The notes under the pieces were generated by a model. The model saw nothing but the letters and a program-made list of their open reading frames with translations, was not told the DNA's origin and ran no database searches. Below are positions 7,051 to 36,529 of a DNA stretch of 40,622 nucleotides, piece by piece (positions within the stretch are counted from its first letter, which is position 1; each line of letters begins with the position of its first letter). The position numbers were made by a program, and so were the translations under genes. Origin of the DNA: a virus (Duplodnaviria; Heunggongvirae; Uroviricota; Caudoviricetes); the IMG/VR virus record IMGVR_UViG_2534682002_000024; one strand, 5' to 3'.

Positions 7051-7572
7051 ATGCAACTGATTAATGTCAAACGATATTACCCGAAAGACAAACCCTATGG
7101 TGAGGATGTTCAGTATTTCCAGAGTGAGGACGGAAGGGATTTTTATGAATCTATCCCGCTTTTTACAAAGAAATACAAACTCTGTATTTCGCCTGTAACG
7201 GGTATTATCTGCTCTGTTGCTGAAGATGTCTCTGCTTTATATCCGGCAGGTTTTACTGTTGTTGAAGTGGACGAACTGCCGGAAGGTGTGAATATTGACG
7301 GTAACTGGCAGTTTTCTGATGGCCTGATATCAAAGGTGCCGGTAAACTGGAAGACGGTTGCTGAAAAGCGTCGCTCATCGCTGCTCCAGGAAGCCAACGA
7401 AACCGTGGATGACTGGAAAACAGAATTAAAACTGGACATGATTAGCGATGAAAATAAATTACAGCTGACGCGCTGGATGGCGTATATCCGACAGCTTAAA
7501 GAAATGCACTTTAATGATATTGCCAGTGAGGGGCATTACCAGGCGATTCCCTGGCCGGAAAAACCGGAATAA
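7051..7572 (+). CDS. Tail fiber assembly protein (Tfa/U-type chaperone)
   Basis: C-terminus ...TRWMAYIRQLKEMHFNDIASEGHYQAIPWPEKPE matches the conserved Tfa C-terminal pattern. Start placed at ATG 7051 (MQLINVKRYY) rather than the track start at 7000. Confidence 0.75.
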   Translation: MQLINVKRYYPKDKPYGEDVQYFQSEDGRDFYESIPLFTKKYKLCISPVTGIICSVAEDVSALYPAGFTVVEVDELPEGVNIDGNWQFSDGLISKVPVNWKTVAEKRRSSLLQEANETVDDWKTELKLDMISDENKLQLTRWMAYIRQLKEMHFNDIASEGHYQAIPWPEKPE

Positions 7573-7606
7573 TTCAGAGGGTGCATTCAGCACCCTTTTC
7601 TGTGGT

Positions 7607-8518
7607 TTACACTGAACTTACCGTTCTCCAGGTATTATTAATATAAATCTGAACCGGGCGATAATAGACCCCACCGATATTGTCCGCAGACCGGGAGCCG
7701 GTTTCCTGCACGTTAATACCGGAAAGCATACAACCGGAAGGTGCGCTGTAATTCCATGACATTTCATTGCCTCCGGGTGAATGATAGCTCTGTGCTCCAA
7801 GCTGAACATTCTGTACATACCGGCCATCTGCGGTTGACTGCGTCATTCCTGACGTGATGTTGATATCCAGCGTTCCGTCAAAAGGAACACCATTAATATT
7901 TCTTGGGGTGGCGAGTCTGTTTGCTGCCACGGCGGTTCCAGCCGATGGCAGGGCATCAGCAGCCTTATTTACCGTTTCCCGTAAACCGAGGTTATCGATA
8001 AAGGTTCCTTTGTCCTGGATATCCGCGCCATTCTGGTCCCTGCGCAGGTAACGGTTATCACCTTCGCTCCTGCTGTAAACATCCAGATTATTACGGGCGG
8101 TTTCCGCATTCTCCAGGTCGGCAAGGTTCTGATCCTTCGCCAGGGCATTAACGTCAGCGGGACCAAGACTGTTTTTTGTGGCAAGCGTCCCCAGACCAAG
8201 ATAACCACGGGCCAGACGCTGGGCTTCCGCACCGGCATCAGCAATTTCTTTCAGGTTGTTTTTCCGGGAAAAGGCATTCGCAGCGATAATGGCTTTAATG
8301 GACAGCGTAAGCTGGTTTAACTGCGCCTTATCCGGCTGAATACTGGCTTCAGCCAGAATATTCAGCAGTTCGGCCTGGAGAATATTCAGCCAGTCCTGAC
8401 CAATCCAGCTGATACCTTTTTGTCCGTCACCTTCGGTAAACCAGGTGGTGGTATTACTCTGCGCCGGAGCCAGTTCAGGCATATTCGCCACGCCGGAATT
8501 ATTATCAACATGGAACAT
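7607..8518 (-). CDS. Tail fiber protein S (constant N-terminal part plus currently expressed variable C-terminus)
   Basis: Follows baseplate genes and contains the gix site at about residue 175. Start placed at ATG 8518, which overlaps the upstream stop as TAATG. Confidence 0.75.
   Translation of the reverse strand: MFHVDNNSGVANMPELAPAQSNTTTWFTEGDGQKGISWIGQDWLNILQAELLNILAEASIQPDKAQLNQLTLSIKAIIAANAFSRKNNLKEIADAGAEAQRLARGYLGLGTLATKNSLGPADVNALAKDQNLADLENAETARNNLDVYSRSEGDNRYLRRDQNGADIQDKGTFIDNLGLRETVNKAADALPSAGTAVAANRLATPRNINGVPFDGTLDINITSGMTQSTADGRYVQNVQLGAQSYHSPGGNEMSWNYSAPSGCMLSGINVQETGSRSADNIGGVYYRPVQIYINNTWRTVSSV
7976..8001. repeat. gix-like crossover site inside S
   Basis: CCCGTAAACCGAGGTTATCGATAA closely resembles Mu gix (TTCCTGTAAACCGAGGTTTTGGATAA, from memory) and is inverted relative to the site at 6553-6578. 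Confidence 0.7.
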
Positions 8519-9078: not shown

Positions 9079-10154
9079 GTGATTTCCCCCACGGTCAGCA
9101 ACTCTGTATCTCCGGCCATCACGGACTTCAGCGGACTGCGAACTTCAAAATCCTCCAGTCCTTTCACCCCTGCAACAGCCCGCCAGAATGATGAAGGCAA
9201 TACAAGTCCACCCGGCCGCGATTCGTTATAAAGCAGGTCCGTTAATGCCTGTTTTACGGCAGCCTGATTTTCCGGCGTTTTGGGTACAATCCTGATCTCA
9301 AACGCCACCGGCTTATTGGTCAGCTTAAACACGCTGATTGTCGGCCCAAGTGGCTGACCAACGGGCTGGCCCGTCGCCGGATCATCATGACTGCGGATAT
9401 AATCCGCCACCCGCTTCACATCACCTTCTCCGGGGAAAATGTCAGGGTTATTATCCTGAACAAAAGTCACACCAACACTACCCGCCTCAGGCCATTCAGG
9501 CTTACACCATGCCCGCGTCACGCCCGGTACTTCCCGTGCCCAGCGTTCAAAATCATACTGTGTTCCCCCTGATGGCGGGTTCTGTACCCGGAATACCAGC
9601 CTGGACAGCAACTCCGGCACCGTTTCCACATCCGCACCACCGGTGAGTCCCGTGCCGGTAACCGTGGCTGTCTGGTTGATGCCCGCCTGTGGCGTGATAA
9701 AGGACAGGCGGGTTCCGGTCGGGGTATTTCCGGCGCGCCCCGCACTTTCCGCCTCCACATTAACATTCAGTGTTCCGGCTTTTCCGGTCGCAGAGCCGGT
9801 GATGCGGTACACAACACCATCGCTTCGCTGAAGGAGTACGCCTTCCGTGATCCCTGCATCCGTGGTCAGCATCAGTTGTACCGGTCCGTCAGCGCGGGAA
9901 GCCGGTTTACGGATGACACCCCAGAATGCGCAGTGTTTCAGGAGTTCGGCTTCATCAGCTTCTGTCGGAATTATCTGCCGGGAGATCCAGGCCAGATGTT
10001 CATGCTCCTGTGCTGACAGACCCGCCAGTGCATACGCAATGGCATTCAGGGTGGTTTCATTCACGCCCGGCTGCGAACCGGGCAGGCGCTGGCTGATATC
10101 CTGTTGTGTCTGTGTGATCAGTTGCGCCAGTGGTAAGGGCTGATAAGGCATCAT
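9069..10154 (-). CDS. Baseplate J-like protein (Mu gp47)
   Basis: 361-aa ORF in the conserved position after the gp46-like gene; size typical of baseplate J family. Confidence 0.7.
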   Translation of the reverse strand: MMPYQPLPLAQLITQTQQDISQRLPGSQPGVNETTLNAIAYALAGLSAQEHEHLAWISRQIIPTEADEAELLKHCAFWGVIRKPASRADGPVQLMLTTDAGITEGVLLQRSDGVVYRITGSATGKAGTLNVNVEAESAGRAGNTPTGTRLSFITPQAGINQTATVTGTGLTGGADVETVPELLSRLVFRVQNPPSGGTQYDFERWAREVPGVTRAWCKPEWPEAGSVGVTFVQDNNPDIFPGEGDVKRVADYIRSHDDPATGQPVGQPLGPTISVFKLTNKPVAFEIRIVPKTPENQAAVKQALTDLLYNESRPGGLVLPSSFWRAVAGVKGLEDFEVRSPLKSVMAGDTELLTVGEITWL

Positions 10155-10588
10155 TCCCCCTTCATATCAGCATAAAAAATCATCGGATGTCTGCTTCCGT
10201 CCGGCAGGGTGATTTTCACGGAAAGCGAAAGGCGATCATGCCCCACACGCATGGCATGACATACCACGGATGTGGCAGCACCGCTTTTATGCAGCCACGC
10301 CAGCGCTTCATCAGCATAGGCCTGTGCACGGCTGACCACGGAGGACAGCGTCTTTTCACGGCTTAACAGCCAGAGACGGGAGCCAATGGGGCGCTCCCGG
10401 AAACTGTCTCCCCACCATCCCCGACGGTCACGGGTGCCGTCAGGGATTTCATCGGAATCCAGCGCCCGCCTGTCCGTAAACAGTGAAATAATGACCGCAG
10501 TCAGCAGGCTGTTATCCGTCAGAAGATCTGCGCCGTTCAGTTGCAGGGAACCACAACCCTGATCCCAGACGACAGCAATATCAGCCAT
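10151..10588 (-). CDS. Mu gp46-like baseplate protein (P2 gpW analogue)
   Basis: Start placed at internal ATG 10588 (MADIAVVWDQG...), overlapping the upstream stop as ATGGCTGA. The track ORF extends further upstream in an overlapping frame. Confidence 0.65.
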   Translation of the reverse strand: MADIAVVWDQGCGSLQLNGADLLTDNSLLTAVIISLFTDRRALDSDEIPDGTRDRRGWWGDSFRERPIGSRLWLLSREKTLSSVVSRAQAYADEALAWLHKSGAATSVVCHAMRVGHDRLSLSVKITLPDGSRHPMIFYADMKGE

Positions 10589-22574: not shown

Positions 22575-22695
22575 ATTGCCTCCGCATAAAGGATGAATAT
22601 AAAATAAACAGGCGGTCAGTGTACGCTTAACTGGTAAAGTCGGTGCCTGCCTCCGGGTGGATCATGTATGCGGGTTCGACCCCCGCCACTGACCG

Positions 22696-29897: not shown

Positions 29898-30323
29898 TCA
29901 GAAAAGTGGCGGTTGCGTTCTTGCCAGATGCAGACGGCGCTGTTCACGTATGACGGTATAAATCTGGGTTTCTGACATCCGGTAATGGCGGCGAAGGGAT
30001 TCAATTTTCTCGCCCCGGTCCCAGCGCGAAAATATCTCATTGTTTCGCAGCTCGGCAAAGAGAGATTCCCCGACCGGCAGGTAATAACCCCGTCCGCCCA
30101 TATAGGCTGCCTGAGCCGCAGCCACCTTGCGTGCCAGTTTACCGGCCAGTACCGGCTCAATCCCCTGACGCTGAAGTTCTGCGCCGGTGACTTCAACCAG
30201 TTCTGACAGGGTCCGCGGCCAGTTCTTTTTGAGAACATCATCAGGGATGTCATCAAGGCGGTCGATAAGGGCGTGCAGTTGCTCACTGTCACCACCAAAC
30301 ATGCTCATCTGAGTTTCTGCCAT
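29898..30323 (-). CDS. Mor/C-family transcriptional activator
   Basis: 141 aa; the C-terminal part (GRGYYLP ... IYTVIREQRRLHLARTQPPLF) parallels Mu Mor as I recall it. Whether it is the Mor or the C equivalent is not resolved. Confidence 0.7.
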   Translation of the reverse strand: MAETQMSMFGGDSEQLHALIDRLDDIPDDVLKKNWPRTLSELVEVTGAELQRQGIEPVLAGKLARKVAAAQAAYMGGRGYYLPVGESLFAELRNNEIFSRWDRGEKIESLRRHYRMSETQIYTVIREQRRLHLARTQPPLF

Positions 30324-30354: not shown

Positions 30355-30386
30355 TTTAAAATAAAAATCCCGCGTTGTGGCGGGAT
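30355..30386 (-). terminator. Intrinsic terminator downstream of gemA-like gene
   Basis: Hairpin ATCCCGC-gttgtg-GCGGGAT (30367-30386) followed on the minus strand by a T-rich run (TTTTTATTTTAAA). Confidence 0.5.
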
Positions 30387-30392
30387 TTGGGG

Positions 30393-30902
30393 TTAACGGG
30401 GAAGTGATTTTTCATACTGCCTGCAAACGGCGTCATACCCCATCAGCGTGCGTTCGGGCATTCCCATCGCGGCCAGCATTTTGCGGCGGTGCCATCGCTT
30501 GAGACGCTCCAGCACATCTGAGGCCAGGGCGGGGTGTTGCTCCAGCCACTGCCAGTTTGCCACACCTTCGCCGCCGTTCTGCGCGGCCGTCTGCGATTTC
30601 ACCCAGCGGTTAAGGGCGGTTTCCGCACCATCGGTGATAAAGCCCTGCCGGAGCATCACCTTCCAGATGGCGCGAATTTTGGCGGTCACCGTACCCGGTT
30701 TTAAGGCCCGGTTAACCGGGTTCTGACGCACTTTAAAACCGCGTTTTTTGAAAACATCCAGCACGCGGGATAACTCATCCGGTGACATATCCCGGCAGCT
30801 GGTTTTGCCGGTGGCTGCCAGCAGCGCGGATGTATAAGTCTCATCATCCAGGGCAAGCTCGCGCTTTGCCACATGAATGGCGGATATCAGTTTTCCTCTC
30901 AT
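30393..30902 (-). CDS. GemA-like protein (Mu gp16 family)
   Basis: 169 aa; sits immediately upstream of the Mor/C-type gene as gemA does in Mu. Confidence 0.65.
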   Translation of the reverse strand: MRGKLISAIHVAKRELALDDETYTSALLAATGKTSCRDMSPDELSRVLDVFKKRGFKVRQNPVNRALKPGTVTAKIRAIWKVMLRQGFITDGAETALNRWVKSQTAAQNGGEGVANWQWLEQHPALASDVLERLKRWHRRKMLAAMGMPERTLMGYDAVCRQYEKSLPR

Positions 30903-31195
30903 ACCGTATTTACCTTTTTACGGACATGGAAAGCCTTTTCTGCCTCATCCCACCGGGCATGGTGTGTTGGTGGAATAATCATTATGTGCCAGCCATCTCT
31001 GGTTGTTATCCGGCAGAAAAATTCACCGCTATATAACACAATGGCCTGCTGAATGAGCGCATCAGCCGCCCGTTCAACCGGATGTCTTTTATCAAAAAAG
31101 CAGATGATTTTTCGACATAACCACCGGGTAATAACAAATGCGCCGAAAAAGGATGTGATATATAAGCACCAGAACAACAGAGAACTATTGTCCAT
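30899..31195 (-). CDS. Hypothetical membrane protein (one N-terminal TM helix)
   Basis: 98-aa ORF; hydrophobic segment LLFWCLYITSFFGAFVI. Confidence 0.45.
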   Translation of the reverse strand: MDNSSLLFWCLYITSFFGAFVITRWLCRKIICFFDKRHPVERAADALIQQAIVLYSGEFFCRITTRDGWHIMIIPPTHHARWDEAEKAFHVRKKVNTV

Positions 31196-31382
31196 TATCT
31201 TTCTCCTTATTCACTCTTCTGCGGCATTCGGCACAGTCATCAGGGCTTTCAAATGTATCCGGCTCGCGATTATGAGCCAGATATAACCACCGTCCACATA
31301 TACTGATATTTTCGCCTGTTTTAAAAAAATGATGCTTCCTGGCCATTAGTGGCCGCGCCCATCCAGCGGGTAGACTATTCAT
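31185..31382 (-). CDS. Hypothetical 65-aa protein with possible Cys-based metal-binding motif
   Basis: Short ORF in the co-oriented early operon, containing ICGRW ... DDCAEC. Confidence 0.4.
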   Translation of the reverse strand: MNSLPAGWARPLMARKHHFFKTGENISICGRWLYLAHNREPDTFESPDDCAECRRRVNKEKDNGQ

Positions 31383-31710
31383 TTGCTTTATCCTCCATGC
31401 TGGACAGAATCATATGTATTAATGTCGGGCGTGGAGATATACGCATTTCATTAAGCGTCTGAAGGGCAGCAACAGCTGCCTGTTTATCGGTGCCTTTGGC
31501 AATTTCAGCAAGAGAATGCACAATCCATAACGGGCTTAACGCTACGGCTGAATGCAGAATCATGTCATCCATAATAATTTCTGGCATATCCCGTTTGTCA
31601 CATTCTTTATCCATAAAAGAAACGATTTTTTCTGCATCTTCCGGTTTCATGCCTCCGGCGATGAGAATTTTACGATATTCATAAGACGATCTTAATTCAA
31701 TACTCATCAT
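31375..31710 (-). CDS. Hypothetical early protein
   Basis: 111-aa ORF in the co-oriented early operon. Confidence 0.45.
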   Translation of the reverse strand: MMSIELRSSYEYRKILIAGGMKPEDAEKIVSFMDKECDKRDMPEIIMDDMILHSAVALSPLWIVHSLAEIAKGTDKQAAVAALQTLNEMRISPRPTLIHMILSSMEDKANE

Positions 31711-31722
31711 TCACCTGCCTGT

Positions 31723-32115
31723 TTAATCAGTTTCCAGTGCTTTGCTACGGGCAACAGCCTCACACTCAAAAAATACCGACTCCGGCACACGCTCCTTTAA
31801 TTCACGAACAAGAAAATCATTAACGAGTTCATGACGTCTTATATTTCTTTCCTTTTCCTCCTGGCGCAATACAGCAAGGCGGTATTCAACAGTCCGGCGT
31901 TGTTTCTGAAAGACAGCTAGTGCTTTTCTGGCAGAGTTACGCCATGTATCATCGCCACAGGGTTCGTATTCAAGCTGAAATTTAATCTCTTCAATGGTTT
32001 CTTTTATTTTTGCCAGCAAGCTAAGACAGTCGCTGATTGTCTTCAGTTTTTCATTATCAATATAACTTCTCACGCATTCACCTCCCGTCATTCCGGTAAA
32101 GCTGAAATATGGCAC
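31723..32115 (-). CDS. Hypothetical early protein (coiled-coil); start may be an internal ATG
   Basis: 130-aa ORF in the co-oriented early operon. Confidence 0.4.
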   Translation of the reverse strand: MPYFSFTGMTGGECVRSYIDNEKLKTISDCLSLLAKIKETIEEIKFQLEYEPCGDDTWRNSARKALAVFQKQRRTVEYRLAVLRQEEKERNIRRHELVNDFLVRELKERVPESVFFECEAVARSKALETD

Positions 32116-32399
32116 CAGTGCGTCACCTGTCCGTCCTCATCTTCAAGGCAGGCTCCGGTTTCTTCATCAATAAAAAAGCCTTCATACCCCATATGGCCGA
32201 TGCGCAGTTCCTGTTGGTCACCATACTGAACAATCAGCACGACAGCCTCCATATCAGGCGGAAATGCGTCATCCAGTGAATGCCAGGGATAACCGCGCAA
32301 ATCCCCGAAATAAACACCGGTCAGCGTTCCGCCACAAACCGACATTCCGGCGACACATACCAGAGGCTCGTCTGATTCAACAAATAATGTCGTTATCAT
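32088..32399 (-). CDS. Hypothetical strongly acidic early protein (candidate DNA mimic)
   Basis: 103 aa with about 19 Asp/Glu against 2 Arg and no Lys, clustered as DEETGACLEDEDGQ; translationally coupled to the upstream gene. Confidence 0.45.
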   Translation of the reverse strand: MITTLFVESDEPLVCVAGMSVCGGTLTGVYFGDLRGYPWHSLDDAFPPDMEAVVLIVQYGDQQELRIGHMGYEGFFIDEETGACLEDEDGQVTHWCHISALPE

Positions 32400-32947
32400 G
32401 GCATTAACTCCCGTAATACAACATCTTCGGCAGTCCGGCGATGGTGATAAATAAAATTCACCGTACTCTCGGATAATTCAAATTTCTCGCCTATTTCCCG
32501 GAAGGTAAGACGTCGTGGTGATTCAGCATCCCGTAATTCACGAATAAGATGAACATCATCATCAGGTATACGGGTGAAGGGCAGCAACTCTCCGTATTTT
32601 TTCATGCTTACGCCAATATATCGCGCCCGTTTGTGGACAGAATCCCGGTCTCGCCCCAGATATTCTCCTATTTGCTTACCGGTCATCGTTCTGGCATTTT
32701 TTCGGATAAATTTATCTTCATCATGTTTAAATCTTGGACGTTTGCATTTGAGCAACTCCGGGTAAGTACCGCGTAATAAAACAATCCGGTTATGTACACC
32801 CCAGAAACTTCTTTTTACCCTGACAGCAATATCCTTAACCGGGGTGGATGGATAAAGCGCAATCAGCAGTGCATCTTCTTCAGGTGTCCACGCACGGACA
32901 TGAGCGGGTGCACGGCCTTTTCGCCCCATGGGTTGTAAAATCATCAT
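32396..32947 (-). CDS. Hypothetical early protein with SANT/Myb-like WTPEEDALL motif and C-terminal HTH-like segment
   Basis: 183-aa ORF containing AWTPEEDALLIALY and LTFREIGEKFELSESTV. Confidence 0.45.
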   Translation of the reverse strand: MMILQPMGRKGRAPAHVRAWTPEEDALLIALYPSTPVKDIAVRVKRSFWGVHNRIVLLRGTYPELLKCKRPRFKHDEDKFIRKNARTMTGKQIGEYLGRDRDSVHKRARYIGVSMKKYGELLPFTRIPDDDVHLIRELRDAESPRRLTFREIGEKFELSESTVNFIYHHRRTAEDVVLRELMP

Positions 32948-32950
32948 ACA

Positions 32951-33466
32951 TCACCCCCTGACTCGCTTTTCAGCAGCATAAAACTCATCAGACAGAATTT
33001 CGGTCATTTTCTGTTTTGCGGGTTTTACGCCGCACTGAAGGTAAATCACATCGTCAACGCAGAACCACTCCACAGGGCCAAACAGGATTGCCGAGAAATC
33101 AATACCCAGCCAGAACAACAGGGCATCGGTTCTGGCATACGTGACGGGCGAATATTCACGCCACAGACTGTTAAGTTCGTCAGAGGCAGCGCACAGGGCT
33201 TTGGGAATACACGATGTGCGCGGCGTGCAGCTCCAGCCATTCGACGCAGTCGGTTTTCGCCATAAGTCGCGATGAAAAGGATATTTGTTATCCGTAAAAC
33301 GCAGTCCTTTAAAATAAAAACCATTGATACCGGATACAAATACCGACCGACAATCAACATTCAGCACGGCCTCAAGACGTTTTGCCTCATCCTTAACTTT
33401 CTTGTAGTCCTGCTGGTATTTTTGCCACGCAGCCAGCGCGGAAGGGTTTGATGTTTTAAAGAACAT
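32951..33466 (-). CDS. Hypothetical early protein
   Basis: 171-aa ORF in operon context. Confidence 0.45.
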   Translation of the reverse strand: MFFKTSNPSALAAWQKYQQDYKKVKDEAKRLEAVLNVDCRSVFVSGINGFYFKGLRFTDNKYPFHRDLWRKPTASNGWSCTPRTSCIPKALCAASDELNSLWREYSPVTYARTDALLFWLGIDFSAILFGPVEWFCVDDVIYLQCGVKPAKQKMTEILSDEFYAAEKRVRG

Positions 33467-33999
33467 TACGCCACCTCCGCAGATATCCCGGCAGGCGCAG
33501 CCGTCCGGTCAACAATCAGGTAACGCAGAACATGTTCGGTGATATTCCAGCCGCTTAAACCGCAGATAATGACACCCAGGCGAATGTCGATATACGCCAT
33601 CACAAACTGGGGCACGCCTTCTTTCATGGCCTGCTCATCAACTTCAGCCACCACATAAACGGTTTCGCAGGTCAGTACGCCCTGAGCAAATTCCCACGCC
33701 ATCGACGGAATATCATGCCCCTCAATCCACGGCAGGGATTTTCTGAAGCTGCACCACTGAACATCATCAGCCGCACCTTCCTGGCTGCATTTGCGACGAA
33801 CCGGCTGCACCGGGCGGGGACGCGGAATATCATAAAAACCGTTACATTCCGTCAGCACCCCGGCATCGACCGCATCACGCAGAAAATAAACCATCGAGGA
33901 TGGCGGCATATTCATTTTTTCAGCCAGAATGCCGCAGGTCAGACGCCCGTAAATACTCAGCCAGTTTTTAACCCCTTCAAGCACTTTTGCATCAATCAT
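33466..33999 (-). CDS. Hypothetical early protein
   Basis: 177-aa ORF in operon context. Confidence 0.45.
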   Translation of the reverse strand: MIDAKVLEGVKNWLSIYGRLTCGILAEKMNMPPSSMVYFLRDAVDAGVLTECNGFYDIPRPRPVQPVRRKCSQEGAADDVQWCSFRKSLPWIEGHDIPSMAWEFAQGVLTCETVYVVAEVDEQAMKEGVPQFVMAYIDIRLGVIICGLSGWNITEHVLRYLIVDRTAAPAGISAEVA

Positions 34000-34002
34000 G
34001 AA

Positions 34003-34545
34003 TTATTCCTCCGTCAGCGCCACATATTCAGAATGTTTAATTTCCTGGCATTCTTCAGGAATACACCCTTTTATTTCCCTGCCATAAGCGCCTACTTTAA
34101 ACACCACGCACAGGGCATCACGGGAGAGCGACGGGGTCCACCAGGAGTCCGTGTTAAACATGGAGGGGATTCTCATTACCCCCAGCTTTTCACAGAGCCA
34201 GACAAGGAAATCAGGACGCTTTCTTAACTCACGTTCAGCGGTTTCAATCATTGCGGCAATCGCCGGACCTTCAGGGCATGACTCATCAGGTCTGGCAATA
34301 AAGCACGGTCCGTCCCCGATAAAAGCCACATCATCGCGCTTACGCCAGCCCGCAGGCAGAGCACCAGAAAAATAAAACTCACTGATTACGTCCATGGCAA
34401 ACGGCTTTAAGCGCAATCCGGCAGCGCCTGTATTTTTCAGTAATGCCCGAAGAATACTGTTGCGTAGCGGTAAAACAGTCTGTTGATATTTGGTGAAATA
34501 TTTATTTGTCTGCACACGGTCTAATTTGAAATAAAAATATGCCAT
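34003..34545 (-). CDS. Hypothetical early protein
   Basis: 180-aa ORF following gam. Confidence 0.45.
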   Translation of the reverse strand: MAYFYFKLDRVQTNKYFTKYQQTVLPLRNSILRALLKNTGAAGLRLKPFAMDVISEFYFSGALPAGWRKRDDVAFIGDGPCFIARPDESCPEGPAIAAMIETAERELRKRPDFLVWLCEKLGVMRIPSMFNTDSWWTPSLSRDALCVVFKVGAYGREIKGCIPEECQEIKHSEYVALTEE

Positions 34546-34642
34546 ATATCCTGTTCCTTATTTTCAGTTTACAGGCGCAGGCAGTCCCCTGACGCGAGCG
34601 CCATAATTAAAACGAAGTGATATTTAATTGATTAATGCGGTG

Positions 34643-35173
34643 TTATTTATTCAGTCCGGCGTCCTGTTCAAAAGGCTCGACATAAAAACTTTCAGCGCCT
34701 TTATTCACCTTAATACCGGCAATCCCTTTCACCGCATCCGGCTCCGCCAGGACCGCTTCCTTGTTCACTTCCTCTTTCGTGCGGATAAAACGCTCAAGGC
34801 CCATACGGCGCAGCATTTCAATCACACCTTCCACATCACGACTGACGCTGCATGATGGATTCCCCAGTCGCCATGACACCGTTCCGGTGGTCAGATTGGC
34901 TGTTTTGGTTTTGCCGCCGTTCGTCAGCTCATCGCGGTTGGTTTTGCACCAGTCCTGAATCCCCTTAAAAAGCACTTTGATTTCTTTTTTAAGGTTTTCA
35001 ATTTGCGGCGTATAACGGGCGGTGATTTCTGCCACTTCATCATTCATCGCCGTTTCCAGCCGCAGCGCCTCTCGCTGAATATCGCCCAGGGTGCGGATAT
35101 CGCGGCTGACTTCTTCGCGGGTCTGCGGTGCAGCCTCGGCTGCGGCCTTTAATTTTGTAACACGTTTAGCCAT
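34643..35173 (-). CDS. gam: Gam-like host-nuclease inhibitor / DNA-end binding protein
   Basis: 176-aa charged helical protein at the Mu gam position; size matches Mu Gam (about 174 aa). Confidence 0.7.
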   Translation of the reverse strand: MAKRVTKLKAAAEAAPQTREEVSRDIRTLGDIQREALRLETAMNDEVAEITARYTPQIENLKKEIKVLFKGIQDWCKTNRDELTNGGKTKTANLTTGTVSWRLGNPSCSVSRDVEGVIEMLRRMGLERFIRTKEEVNKEAVLAEPDAVKGIAGIKVNKGAESFYVEPFEQDAGLNK

Positions 35174-35184
35174 TTTGTTTTTCC

Positions 35185-35478
35185 TTATTGCAGTGTGCCT
35201 GATGCTTTATGCACGCGGTGGCGTTTAATGATGGCATCCGCCCCAAAAGCCTGTACAGATGCCTGAAATTCCGCTGAGAGAAACTGAATAATTACAGGAC
35301 TGTGATACTGGAGAATGCTTGCATAAACGTCACAGAGTGACGTCGGCCTGTTATCCGTATCACGTTCTGTTTTCACATCCACTCCAATCTTTTCATGCAC
35401 TTCAACACTGTCATTGCCTGCCGGTTTTTCGTCATGCGAAACATGCTCAAATTCAAAAATAACGCGTACTTTGCTCAT
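35185..35478 (-). CDS. Hypothetical small early protein, paralog A
   Basis: Start placed at internal ATG 35478 (MSKVRVIFEFEH). N-terminus parallels the adjacent gene. Confidence 0.45.
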   Translation of the reverse strand: MSKVRVIFEFEHVSHDEKPAGNDSVEVHEKIGVDVKTERDTDNRPTSLCDVYASILQYHSPVIIQFLSAEFQASVQAFGADAIIKRHRVHKASGTLQ

Positions 35479-35482
35479 GGAA

Positions 35483-35755
35483 TTACCCCTGCTGATTAAA
35501 TTCATTACCTTTAATAACCCCGGAACTCATGTTCATATCTTTCATGAGCGCTCTGGCTTTCATTGCCACAAGTTCAGCAAAGTCTCTGCTTTCCGCGAGC
35601 ATAACCACTCCAAAAATCATGGCGGGTCCATCACCTTTCTGCTTTATCCCGGTTGAACGTATGTCCAGACTTACCCCCATGCGCACTGTTCCATCAGCGT
35701 TTTTATGGATAACGTGCTCCTTGTATTCGAAAATAATGCGTACGACTTTACTCAT
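35483..35755 (-). CDS. Hypothetical small early protein, paralog B
   Basis: MSKVVRIIFEYKEH...; the DNA around both start codons is also similar. Confidence 0.45.
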   Translation of the reverse strand: MSKVVRIIFEYKEHVIHKNADGTVRMGVSLDIRSTGIKQKGDGPAMIFGVVMLAESRDFAELVAMKARALMKDMNMSSGVIKGNEFNQQG

Positions 35756-36033
35756 CCTCTGGTCCTCGTTCTGTTTGGATAACTGACCCGGCGTCTGACC
35801 TCACGGCAGAACCGAATCATGGCATTAAAGGCTTCTTCCTCCGTCACCGCTTCCGGTATCCCCGGAACCAGTAACTGCTCCTGTTCATCACGTCCATGAC
35901 GCGCCATAACCTCAATCACATGCCGTACCGTGGCAGGCTTTCCGGCAACTATCGGCAATGCACCTTCCGGCAGGACGTAACCAAACTCAATAAGACCACT
36001 CGACCACGCCCATGCAATGAGATTTTTTTTCAC
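35752..36033 (-). CDS. Hypothetical early protein
   Basis: 93-aa ORF, translationally coupled. Confidence 0.4.
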   Translation of the reverse strand: MKKNLIAWAWSSGLIEFGYVLPEGALPIVAGKPATVRHVIEVMARHGRDEQEQLLVPGIPEAVTEEEAFNAMIRFCREVRRRVSYPNRTRTRG

Positions 36034-36034
36034 C

Positions 36035-36301
36035 TCACACCTCCCAGTAAACCGTGCAGCCGCTGATGCGGGTGGCCTTCACACGGCGGCGCAGGCCGTT
36101 GGTCTGTATGGTGATTTCAATTTCACCGGTTCCCTGCACGTTGCCTACCGGCGGCGTGGTTTTCAGTGCAAAACGTTGTGGGTAGCGCTTACTGCGTTCC
36201 AGTACCGCACCGGCAAGTTCGGTCAGACGGCGCGCGCTGTTCAGGGAGTCGAATAAATTCATTTTGTTACCGCAGGATTGCATATTCATATAACACCTCA
36301 T
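36035..36301 (-). CDS. Hypothetical early protein
   Basis: 88-aa ORF; true start possibly an internal ATG (MNLFDSLNSARRL). Confidence 0.4.
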   Translation of the reverse strand: MRCYMNMQSCGNKMNLFDSLNSARRLTELAGAVLERSKRYPQRFALKTTPPVGNVQGTGEIEITIQTNGLRRRVKATRISGCTVYWEV

Positions 36302-36529
36302 TTAGCTGACTTGTTTCGCACCAACAGAACGGCATATTCCGCTGTAAACTTCTGTCGCACCTTCGCGATCAAGTCCGGCAGATATCACCATTCGTGTGCG
36401 GTCATTAAATTCAAAAAGTAAATCGCCACATTCTTTATTTTCGGCCAGTGAAATCACCTTCACGTTATCGAAATTAACCAGGTAAAAGCGTCCGTAAATA
36501 TCAGGAATATAAAATACCGCCATAATCAC
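36302..36529 (-). CDS. Small protein at the Mu kil position
   Basis: 75 aa, immediately downstream of B; Mu Kil is about 74 aa. Assignment is positional only. Confidence 0.4.
   Translation of the reverse strand: MIMAVFYIPDIYGRFYLVNFDNVKVISLAENKECGDLLFEFNDRTRMVISAGLDREGATEVYSGICRSVGAKQVS

Follow-up and report, generated by a model that had tools for sequence, protein, structure and literature searches.

A conserved block of three genes between two exchangeable slots, from gam to gemA, in an Sp18-like, Mu-like prophage of Escherichia coli

In a Mu-like prophage of E. coli, the nine small genes that lie from gam to gemA form a modular cassette, in which a conserved block of three genes (o2-o4) is flanked by two slots whose contents are exchanged between relatives (o1 on one side, o5-o9 on the other). 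The prophage is the IMG/VR record IMGVR_UViG_2534682002_000024, a stretch of 40,622 nucleotides (nt) that we call the window; by its sequence it is an Sp18-like element, read on the minus strand, with the gene order A, B, five small open reading frames (ORFs), gam, o1-o9, gemA and a Mor/C-family gene. We consider it likely that the interval represents the distal half of what is called the semi-essential early (SE/SEE) region, here in an Sp18-type prophage and built as a block with two slots for swapping.

Modular organisation of the cassette

The nine genes and their two anchors are the following (positions in the window; E, expectation value of the family match).

34643-35173, minus strand: gam, Mu Gam-like DNA-end protection protein, upstream anchor (phrog_491, E 3.5e-70; 57-58% identity with Gam of Mu and SfMu; RefSeq name 'host-nuclease inhibitor Gam family protein')
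34003-34545, minus strand: o1, 180 amino acids (aa), variable slot 1 (phrog_2260, E 7e-75)
33466-33999, minus strand: o2, 177 aa, homologue of Mu gp11, conserved block (phrog_1949, E 4e-106)
32951-33466, minus strand: o3, 171 aa, homologue of Mu gp12, conserved block
32396-32947, minus strand: o4, 183 aa, three predicted helix-turn-helix (HTH) repeats, conserved block (phrog_323, E 6.3e-58)
32088-32399, minus strand: o5, 103 aa, very acidic, variable slot 2 (phrog_6925, E 5e-52)
31723-32073, minus strand: o6, 116 aa, variable slot 2 (phrog_6158, E 2e-57)
31375-31710, minus strand: o7, 111 aa (110 from the RefSeq start), variable slot 2 (phrog_1988, E 6e-45)
31185-31382, minus strand: o8, 65 aa, putative zinc-binding protein, variable slot 2 (phrog_2358, E 5e-34)
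30899-31195, minus strand: o9, 98 aa, predicted N-terminal membrane anchor, variable slot 2 (phrog_17269, E 2e-32)
30393-30902, minus strand: gemA (gp16 family), downstream anchor (PF06252 GemA, E 3.9e-29; RefSeq name 'gp16 family protein')

The DNA of o2-o4 was found in 233 of 5426 complete E. coli genomes. Within this lineage the slot genes are each carried by 54-92% of the genomes: o1 and o7 by 214 of the 233 in both cases, o5 by 144 and o6 by 126, while o8 and o9 are both complete in 157 and some part of them is present in 215. When 26 lineage loci, taken from E. coli chromosomes and IMG/VR contigs, were compared, o2, o3 and o4 were present in 26/26 and at least nine arrangements were distinguished. 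In the second slot, a 61-aa gene may stand in place of o5-o6, a variant of o9 may follow directly after o5, genes like gp13/gp14 of Mu come after o5 in some E. coli relatives, and IS5 or an opposite-strand DUF2513 gene can take the place of o8-o9; one relative (locus L033) has a split o5. In the first slot, o1 is absent or replaced at loci L006 (by a DUF5420 gene), L007 and L009. A MazG-like identity guessed for a slot gene of another locus (L010) was unconfirmed by Pfam. The base composition also differs, the GC content being 0.40-0.50 in o4-o9 versus 0.52-0.58 in gam and gemA. A sequence-only reading of this DNA had assigned the whole interval to the variable part of Mu-like genomes. That description stands for the six genes of the two swap-prone slots, which are naturally absent or replaced in related prophages, and fails for o2, o3 and o4: these are present in every lineage member, therefore not all nine genes are variable.

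Outside the lineage, 23 gam-anchored loci of other species (Kluyvera, Pantoea, Gilliamella, Orbaceae, Rodentibacter, Pseudomonas and others) were examined. Here gemA is detectable in 20 of the 23, and the distance from gam to gemA, measurable in 21 loci, varies between about 50 bp and 2.9 kb. Of the nine genes, o2 alone is detectable in these loci, in 4/23, all enterobacterial (Kluyvera, Pantoea and a metagenome-assembled genome of Enterobacteriaceae, with 36-40% identity); the intervals hold unrelated genes, among them those of a YfbR-like HD phosphohydrolase, an HU-like protein and DUF2786/DUF7168 proteins. This comparative check, which the sequence-only reading had itself proposed, thus agrees with it insofar as only gam and gemA are kept across genera, and departs from it in that o2 and o3 are clear homologues of gp11 and gp12 of Mu.

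The nine genes are real and correctly delimited. ORF tiling and the matches of the flanking genes confirm that nine minus-strand ORFs of 65-183 aa tile positions 30899-34545 from gam to gemA. To call them tightly packed and mostly overlapping was fair: overlaps of 1-11 nt occur at five junctions, namely o2/o3 (where the o3 start overlaps the o2 stop by 1 nt), o4/o5, o7/o8, o8/o9 and o9/gemA (where the o9 stop overlaps the gemA start), and the remaining junctions are gaps of 3-14 nt. Each ORF matches a PHROG family (E 2e-32 to 4e-106), a GGAG-type Shine-Dalgarno sequence precedes 9/9 starts, and the ratio of nonsynonymous to synonymous substitution rates (dN/dS) against diverged orthologues is 0.11-0.36 for most genes and about 0.1-0.2 for o5-o9, the highest single value being 0.64 for o1, from few substitutions; because of these three lines of evidence the ORFs lie far beyond chance.

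The 3.6-kb interval is 100% identical to several chromosomes of enterohaemorrhagic E. coli (EHEC), and in one identical genome the prophage is inserted within lsrC. In the 100%-identical chromosomes RefSeq annotates the same nine coding sequences, every one as 'hypothetical protein', with start codons that differ from the ORF list for o6 and o7 only; for o6, RefSeq and the PHROG match favour the GTG at 32073 (116 aa), the ORF from 32115 having 130 aa. Each of the nine exact proteins is recorded on at least 1000 contigs, with names that include 'hypothetical protein', 'Gp11 C-terminal domain-containing protein', 'Mu prophage protein' and 'AsnC family protein'. The genes were rightly described as uncharacterised, none of the nine having a known function. 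The unrelated o1 and o2 are reported in one 90%-identity protein cluster, probably a clustering artefact such as a fused or mis-called member.

Gene products and searches for function

The three proteins of the conserved block are those with the clearest relatives in Mu. Over 177 aa, o2 and Mu gp11 share 68% identity, and o2 belongs to the Gp11_C family (PF25754, 139 bits for a cutoff of 27, E 5.7e-41). For o3 the identity with Mu gp12 is 54% along 168 aa, and 46 of 46 homologue clusters, all from E. coli or Salmonella, carry the precomputed domain PF26885 and place o3 in the Mu gp12 family, the assignment being made through these homologues. An AlphaFold2 model of o3 (pLDDT 76, pTM 0.69) found no analogue in the PDB by fold search and resembled only unnamed or uncharacterised viral proteins. 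As for o4, it is a basic protein (isoelectric point, pI, of 10) whose PHROG family, phrog_323, is named 'transcriptional regulator, D5-like'. Its residues 66-166 match Mu gp9 (E8) by BLASTP (31% identity, E 5e-10), three Myb/SANT-like HTH repeats can be distinguished by eye versus two in Mu gp9, and several HTH models of Pfam give hits, all under their cutoffs. RefSeq names variants of o4 as AsnC family, SANT/Myb-like or DNA-binding protein. Together, these resemblances suggest that o4 is a DNA-binding protein related to Mu gp9.

The first slot is occupied by o1, which has no Pfam match of its own and belongs to a very small family: an exhaustive HMMER search of 1.84 billion representatives gave 3 full-length clusters at 50% identity. 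It is 40% identical to SfMu gp11 and 23% identical to the true DUF5420 protein encoded at the o1 position in L006, with which it has in common a C-terminal IKHSE..A.TEE motif. The DUF5420 model (PF17457, cutoff 26 bits) matched neither o1 nor SfMu gp11, even at E up to 10, and gave 51 bits with the L006 gene. Because of the missing model match, with only 23% identity and the C-terminal motif in common, o1 appears at best to be a divergent relative of SfMu gp11 and of DUF5420-type proteins. A paralogy of o1 and o3 was also considered from their similar size, N-terminal FFK/YFK and C-terminal SE(F/Y) motifs and a marginal BLASTP match (E 0.05); it was unsupported by a profile-profile comparison (probability 0.4%, with shallow profiles).

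The genes of the second slot are heterogeneous. o5 has a pI of 4.05, a net charge of -17 and homologues in E. coli and Salmonella only (16 clusters). It was compared with DUF551 (PF04448) and rejected as a member, with 13 bits for a cutoff of 22 (E 0.2, residues 39-96) and a weak match in only 1 of 10 o5 family members; an AlphaFold2 model from a 10-sequence alignment (pLDDT 52) was too poor for a fold search. o6 carries a conserved RLAVLRxEEKERN motif, and its sequence is suggestive of a helical or coiled-coil protein. Homologues with 37-41% identity lie directly upstream of the excisionase and integrase genes (xis-int) in the Escherichia phages Fraca (Hendrixvirinae) and SaltyDalty. o7 has 34% identity with SfMu gp14 and with proteins of Yersinia Mu-like phages. 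The sequence-only reading had pointed out one protein with a cysteine motif and one membrane protein, and both were found, as o8 and o9, respectively. In o8, the residues H18, C29, C50 and C53 are invariant in an alignment of six diverse homologues, and we regard it as a putative small zinc-binding protein. Its family occurs in phages of unrelated types, temperate and virulent, that infect several genera (phages of Klebsiella and Pantoea, Shigella Sf11, E. coli swi2 and 689R2, Pseudomonas PSA25), where it typically adjoins a gene for a DNA methyltransferase, a ParB/KorB-like protein or a small nuclease (loci L055, L056 and L059-L061). A Kunitz/BPTI (bovine pancreatic trypsin inhibitor) assignment of o8 was rejected: the profile matched variants of bovine BPTI only (E 0.008-0.4, judged chance) and no other named Kunitz inhibitor (for instance APP or TFPI), and o8 keeps three of the six cysteines. 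o9 has a hydrophobic stretch at residues 5-23 (Kyte-Doolittle mean of 1.82 over 19 residues); among isolated phages its only homologue is in a Mu-like element inserted in the record of a Shiga toxin (Stx) phage. A homologue search with a concatenated o5-o9 query gave no matches.

Searches of Pfam, NCBIfam and PADLOC with all nine proteins returned no enzymatic motif and no function beyond the family matches noted above. This bears out the absence of enzymatic motifs noticed from the sequence, although to speak of no recognisable domains would be too strong in view of Gp11_C in o2, PF26885 in the o3 homologues and the HTH repeats of o4. None of the nine qualified as a defence protein in PADLOC-DB, where the only signals were those of o4 with a homing-endonuclease model (E 0.0017, through the HTH repeats) and of o7 (E 0.035). 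Sequence searches of the PDB with all nine and profile searches with o1, o3, o5, o6 and o8 found nothing credible, and a profile match of o6 to the coiled coil of Abraxas (E 0.001) was judged compositional or chance. No characterised counter-defence protein (Ocr, ArdA, Acr, Gad, Tad) was matched in Pfam, NCBIfam or the PDB, no dedicated anti-defence library having been searched. Finally, the literature on DUF5420, on Mu gp11/gp12 and on anti-defence genes in Mu yielded no functional study of these genes.

Expression, proposed roles and competing explanations

In the scenario that we favour, the nine genes would be made early in lytic growth, on one transcript with gam and gemA. Promoter-like sites show no excess in the region (6 versus 7.2 expected from shuffled controls), which also has no Rfam family and no notable repeats. 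A GC-rich hairpin starts 5 nt past the gemA stop (30388-30365); from its match to the terminator consensus, it probably marks where the early transcript with the cassette ends. Co-transcription, with partial translational coupling, is likely because the genes lie on the strand of the early operon, have no promoters of their own and are followed by this hairpin after gemA. Two elements lie before o1 and after gemA.

34546-34642, minus strand: spacer of 97 nt between gam and o1 (aligned with Mu and SfMu)
30365-30388, minus strand: terminator-like hairpin with a T-run (9-bp stem with 5 GC pairs, then TTATTTT)

Among the products, o4 and possibly o2 would bind DNA, as regulatory or nucleoprotein factors specific to the phage and serving transpositional replication or the control of early genes. 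The slots hold small accessory genes swapped among the Mu-like prophages of E. coli and Salmonella, the families of o6 and o8 being found in unrelated phages too. Their products may be non-essential host-interaction factors that bind host proteins or the membrane, in keeping with an acidic o5, a zinc-binding o8, a membrane-anchored o9 and a probably helical o6; nothing suggests that they act as enzymes.

Several points weigh against this scenario. None of the nine genes has a proven function, and the genome counts are inflated by the clonal sampling of EHEC serogroups O157, O26 and O111. The non-essentiality of the slot genes is carried over by analogy from classical Mu genetics, together with presence and absence, and co-transcription is deduced solely from strand and spacing together with scans for consensus sites. 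Databases gave no support for the winged-helix N-terminus that o2 might have, and the o3 model is only moderately confident, with no annotated structural neighbour.

The foremost alternative, which overlaps with the scenario above and which we regard as possible but doubtful, makes the cassette an anti-defence island: at least one of o1 and o5-o9 would inhibit a host immune system (for example restriction, Gabija or abortive infection), and an arms race would drive the turnover. Presence is indeed patchy within one lineage, whole genes are replaced at two fixed positions, and the genes would be expressed early, beside gam, whose product counters RecBCD. o5 is a small, extremely acidic protein (net charge -17), and high acidity is a trait of many mimics of proteins or DNA. 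Members of the o6 and o8 families are found in unrelated phages, with accessory genes for neighbours, for instance one for Lar-like restriction alleviation, others for DNA methyltransferases and one that is TIR-like. The functional interaction between Gabija and the Gam and GemA proteins of a Mu-like Pseudomonas phage (PMC12407980) was also counted in favour of this explanation. However, the proteins have no similarity to PADLOC defence models or to characterised proteins of Pfam, NCBIfam or the PDB (no anti-defence library of hidden Markov models was searched), and the variability is equally expected for any non-essential phage gene. The low dN/dS of o5-o9 (about 0.1-0.2) corresponds to purifying, not diversifying, selection and argues against a rapid diversification of the proteins themselves. 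The anti-defence idea is thus a reasonable prior, given the early expression, the vicinity of gam, the patchiness and the acidic o5, with no positive evidence here. Tentatively, at least one slot gene might encode an inhibitor, from a new sequence family, that counters host defence or serves host takeover, with o5, o8 and o9 as the best candidates; if so, the two fixed swap positions around o2-o4 would constitute an exchangeable arsenal of enterobacterial Mu-like phages.

A second alternative, which we find unlikely, is that some of these genes, especially o9, are moron-type genes expressed from the prophage for the benefit of the lysogen, protecting or altering the host, for instance by superinfection exclusion. 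The predicted membrane anchor of o9 would suit such a role, and some relatives have opposite-strand genes before gemA (DUF2513 in loci L008 and L054, gp15 in Mu), possibly transcribed independently, which would fit independent expression from the prophage. Moreover, Mu lysogens show low-level Pe transcription across the SE genes (PMC3820752), which was counted on the same side. Yet in the window all nine genes are on the early-operon strand, their packing leaves no room for promoters, promoter-like sites do not exceed those of shuffled controls, several genes are probably translationally coupled to their neighbours, and there is no match in PADLOC. The last alternative, that some of the nine are chance or decaying ORFs of a degenerate prophage, could appeal to their small size, to the lack of functional annotation, to the split o5 of L033 and to the dN/dS of up to 0.64 for o1 (from few substitutions), but it is effectively refuted by PHROG matches of E 2e-32 or lower and Shine-Dalgarno sequences for 9/9, by dN/dS well under 1, by a perfect tiling on one strand, by conservation in hundreds of genomes and by the report that Sp18 is predicted intact and has its DNA packaged (PMC2669165).

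The spacer between gam and o1 is more conserved with Mu and SfMu than the adjoining genes. A 15/15 block (TTTTAATTATGGCGC) and the motif CGTCAGG.GA..GCGCCTG are shared with both phages, and RNAalifold predicts a GGCGC...GCGCC hairpin of 10 pairs, without covariation; the spacer has no Rfam match. This hairpin is not a standard terminator because it is not followed by a T-run, and the spacer may be a regulatory or RNA-processing element. An ATG within it opens a mini-ORF of 11 codons, and the same ATG in SfMu is in frame with gp11.

Other features of the neighbourhood were observed. From gemA to the lysozyme gene there is a single gene of the Mor/C family of activators (29898-30323, minus strand). 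Its similarity to Mu C (39% identity, Mu 9966-10364) exceeds that to Mu Mor, the hairpin at 30365-30388 stands between it and gemA, and the separate mor and C genes of Mu are not kept. Five further small early ORFs (75-106 aa; 35185-36529, minus strand) are found between the gene for the B-like ATPase and gam; two adjacent ones, 35185-35505 and 35483-35755, have N-termini that look alike by eye and starts that resemble Mu gp7. Elsewhere, at about 22615-22694 (11717-11796 of L001), RefSeq annotates a 'tRNA-OTHER' in the identical prophage, and ARAGORN found no tRNA anywhere in the window.

Relation to known Mu-like elements

The organisation is as expected for a Mu-like phage, the genes were already catalogued as uncharacterised, and no new kind of system is revealed. 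Mu's semi-essential region was recognised decades ago, and most of its genes, including gp11 and gp12, are without an assigned function. A defined role for any of the nine genes, if found, would fill a gap in a textbook phage, and would be relevant also to a prophage that many Shiga-toxin-producing E. coli harbour. What the present analysis adds is a map for experiments and functional screens, with lineage-core genes (o2-o4), six exchangeable genes and two mobile families (o6 and o8).

The interval has the position of an SE/SEE region, in the early operon, downstream of A and B and bracketed by gam and gemA/mor. It also has the content of one: short packed genes (gaps of at most 14 nt), no functional matches and poor conservation across transposable phages. 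The SEE region of transposable phages has been described as long, poorly conserved and made of small proteins without assigned function (PMC8705779), and the SE genes of Mu as largely uncharacterised, on the long Pe early transcript that extends from ner to C (PMC3820752). The general idea of poorly conserved small early genes with unassigned functions is therefore already in the Mu-like phage literature (PMC8705779, PMC3820752).

Among more distant systems, the exo-xis/b and nin regions of lambdoid phages (Ea22, DUF551 proteins) likewise hold small mosaic early genes, mostly functionally uncharacterised, but differ from this prophage in phage type and operon. DUF551 is a portable acidic domain in an Ea22 variant and in YfdS (PMC10834534); the resemblance of o5 to this domain is weak. 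In Pseudomonas phages, the DNA of the cassette finds matches within gam only. Small early proteins of Mu-like phages of this genus (Tip, Aqs1) bind host proteins; the analogy is functional only, Tip and Aqs1 not having been compared directly.

Closer relatives are SfMu and the Yersinia Mu-like phages vB_YpM. In SfMu, gp11 (annotated as DUF5420) and gp14 resemble o1 and o7 and occupy the same relative positions, and in the Yersinia phages proteins about 35-37% identical to o1 are found. SfMu differs by having no o4-o6, o8 or o9 and by a gp12 that appears disrupted, since only an N-terminally truncated gp12-like ORF (122 aa, 7602-7970) remains; the SfMu sequence (L003) has an unannotated gap at 7442-7957, at the position of Mu gp12.

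In Mu itself, the SE genes gp11-gp15 (formerly E10-E15) have the same place in the early operon, from gam to gemA. The two elements have in common gp11/o2 with the same Gp11_C domain, the homologous gp12/o3 and the roughly 97-nt conserved spacer after gam. Mu has five genes in 1.9 kb, whereas nine genes occupy 3.7 kb here; Mu is without o1 and o4-o9, and this prophage is without gp13, gp14 and the reverse-strand gp15. The gp9-like HTH gene is upstream of gam in Mu and downstream of the gp12 homologue here. Directly upstream of gemA, an opposite-strand gene is present in Mu (gp15, 7896-8162) and in L008 and L054 (DUF2513, 136 aa; 875-1285 in L008), and the window holds o8 and o9 at that position.

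The closest known system is Sp18 of E. coli O157:H7 Sakai, a prophage predicted to be intact whose DNA is packaged into particles (PMC2669165). It is essentially the same element: the o8-o9 DNA is 99.8% identical to NC_002695.2, within a feature annotated as 'prophage Sp18, Mu-like phage', and the Sp18 relatives in EHEC O157, O26 and O111 differ in the slot genes that they carry.

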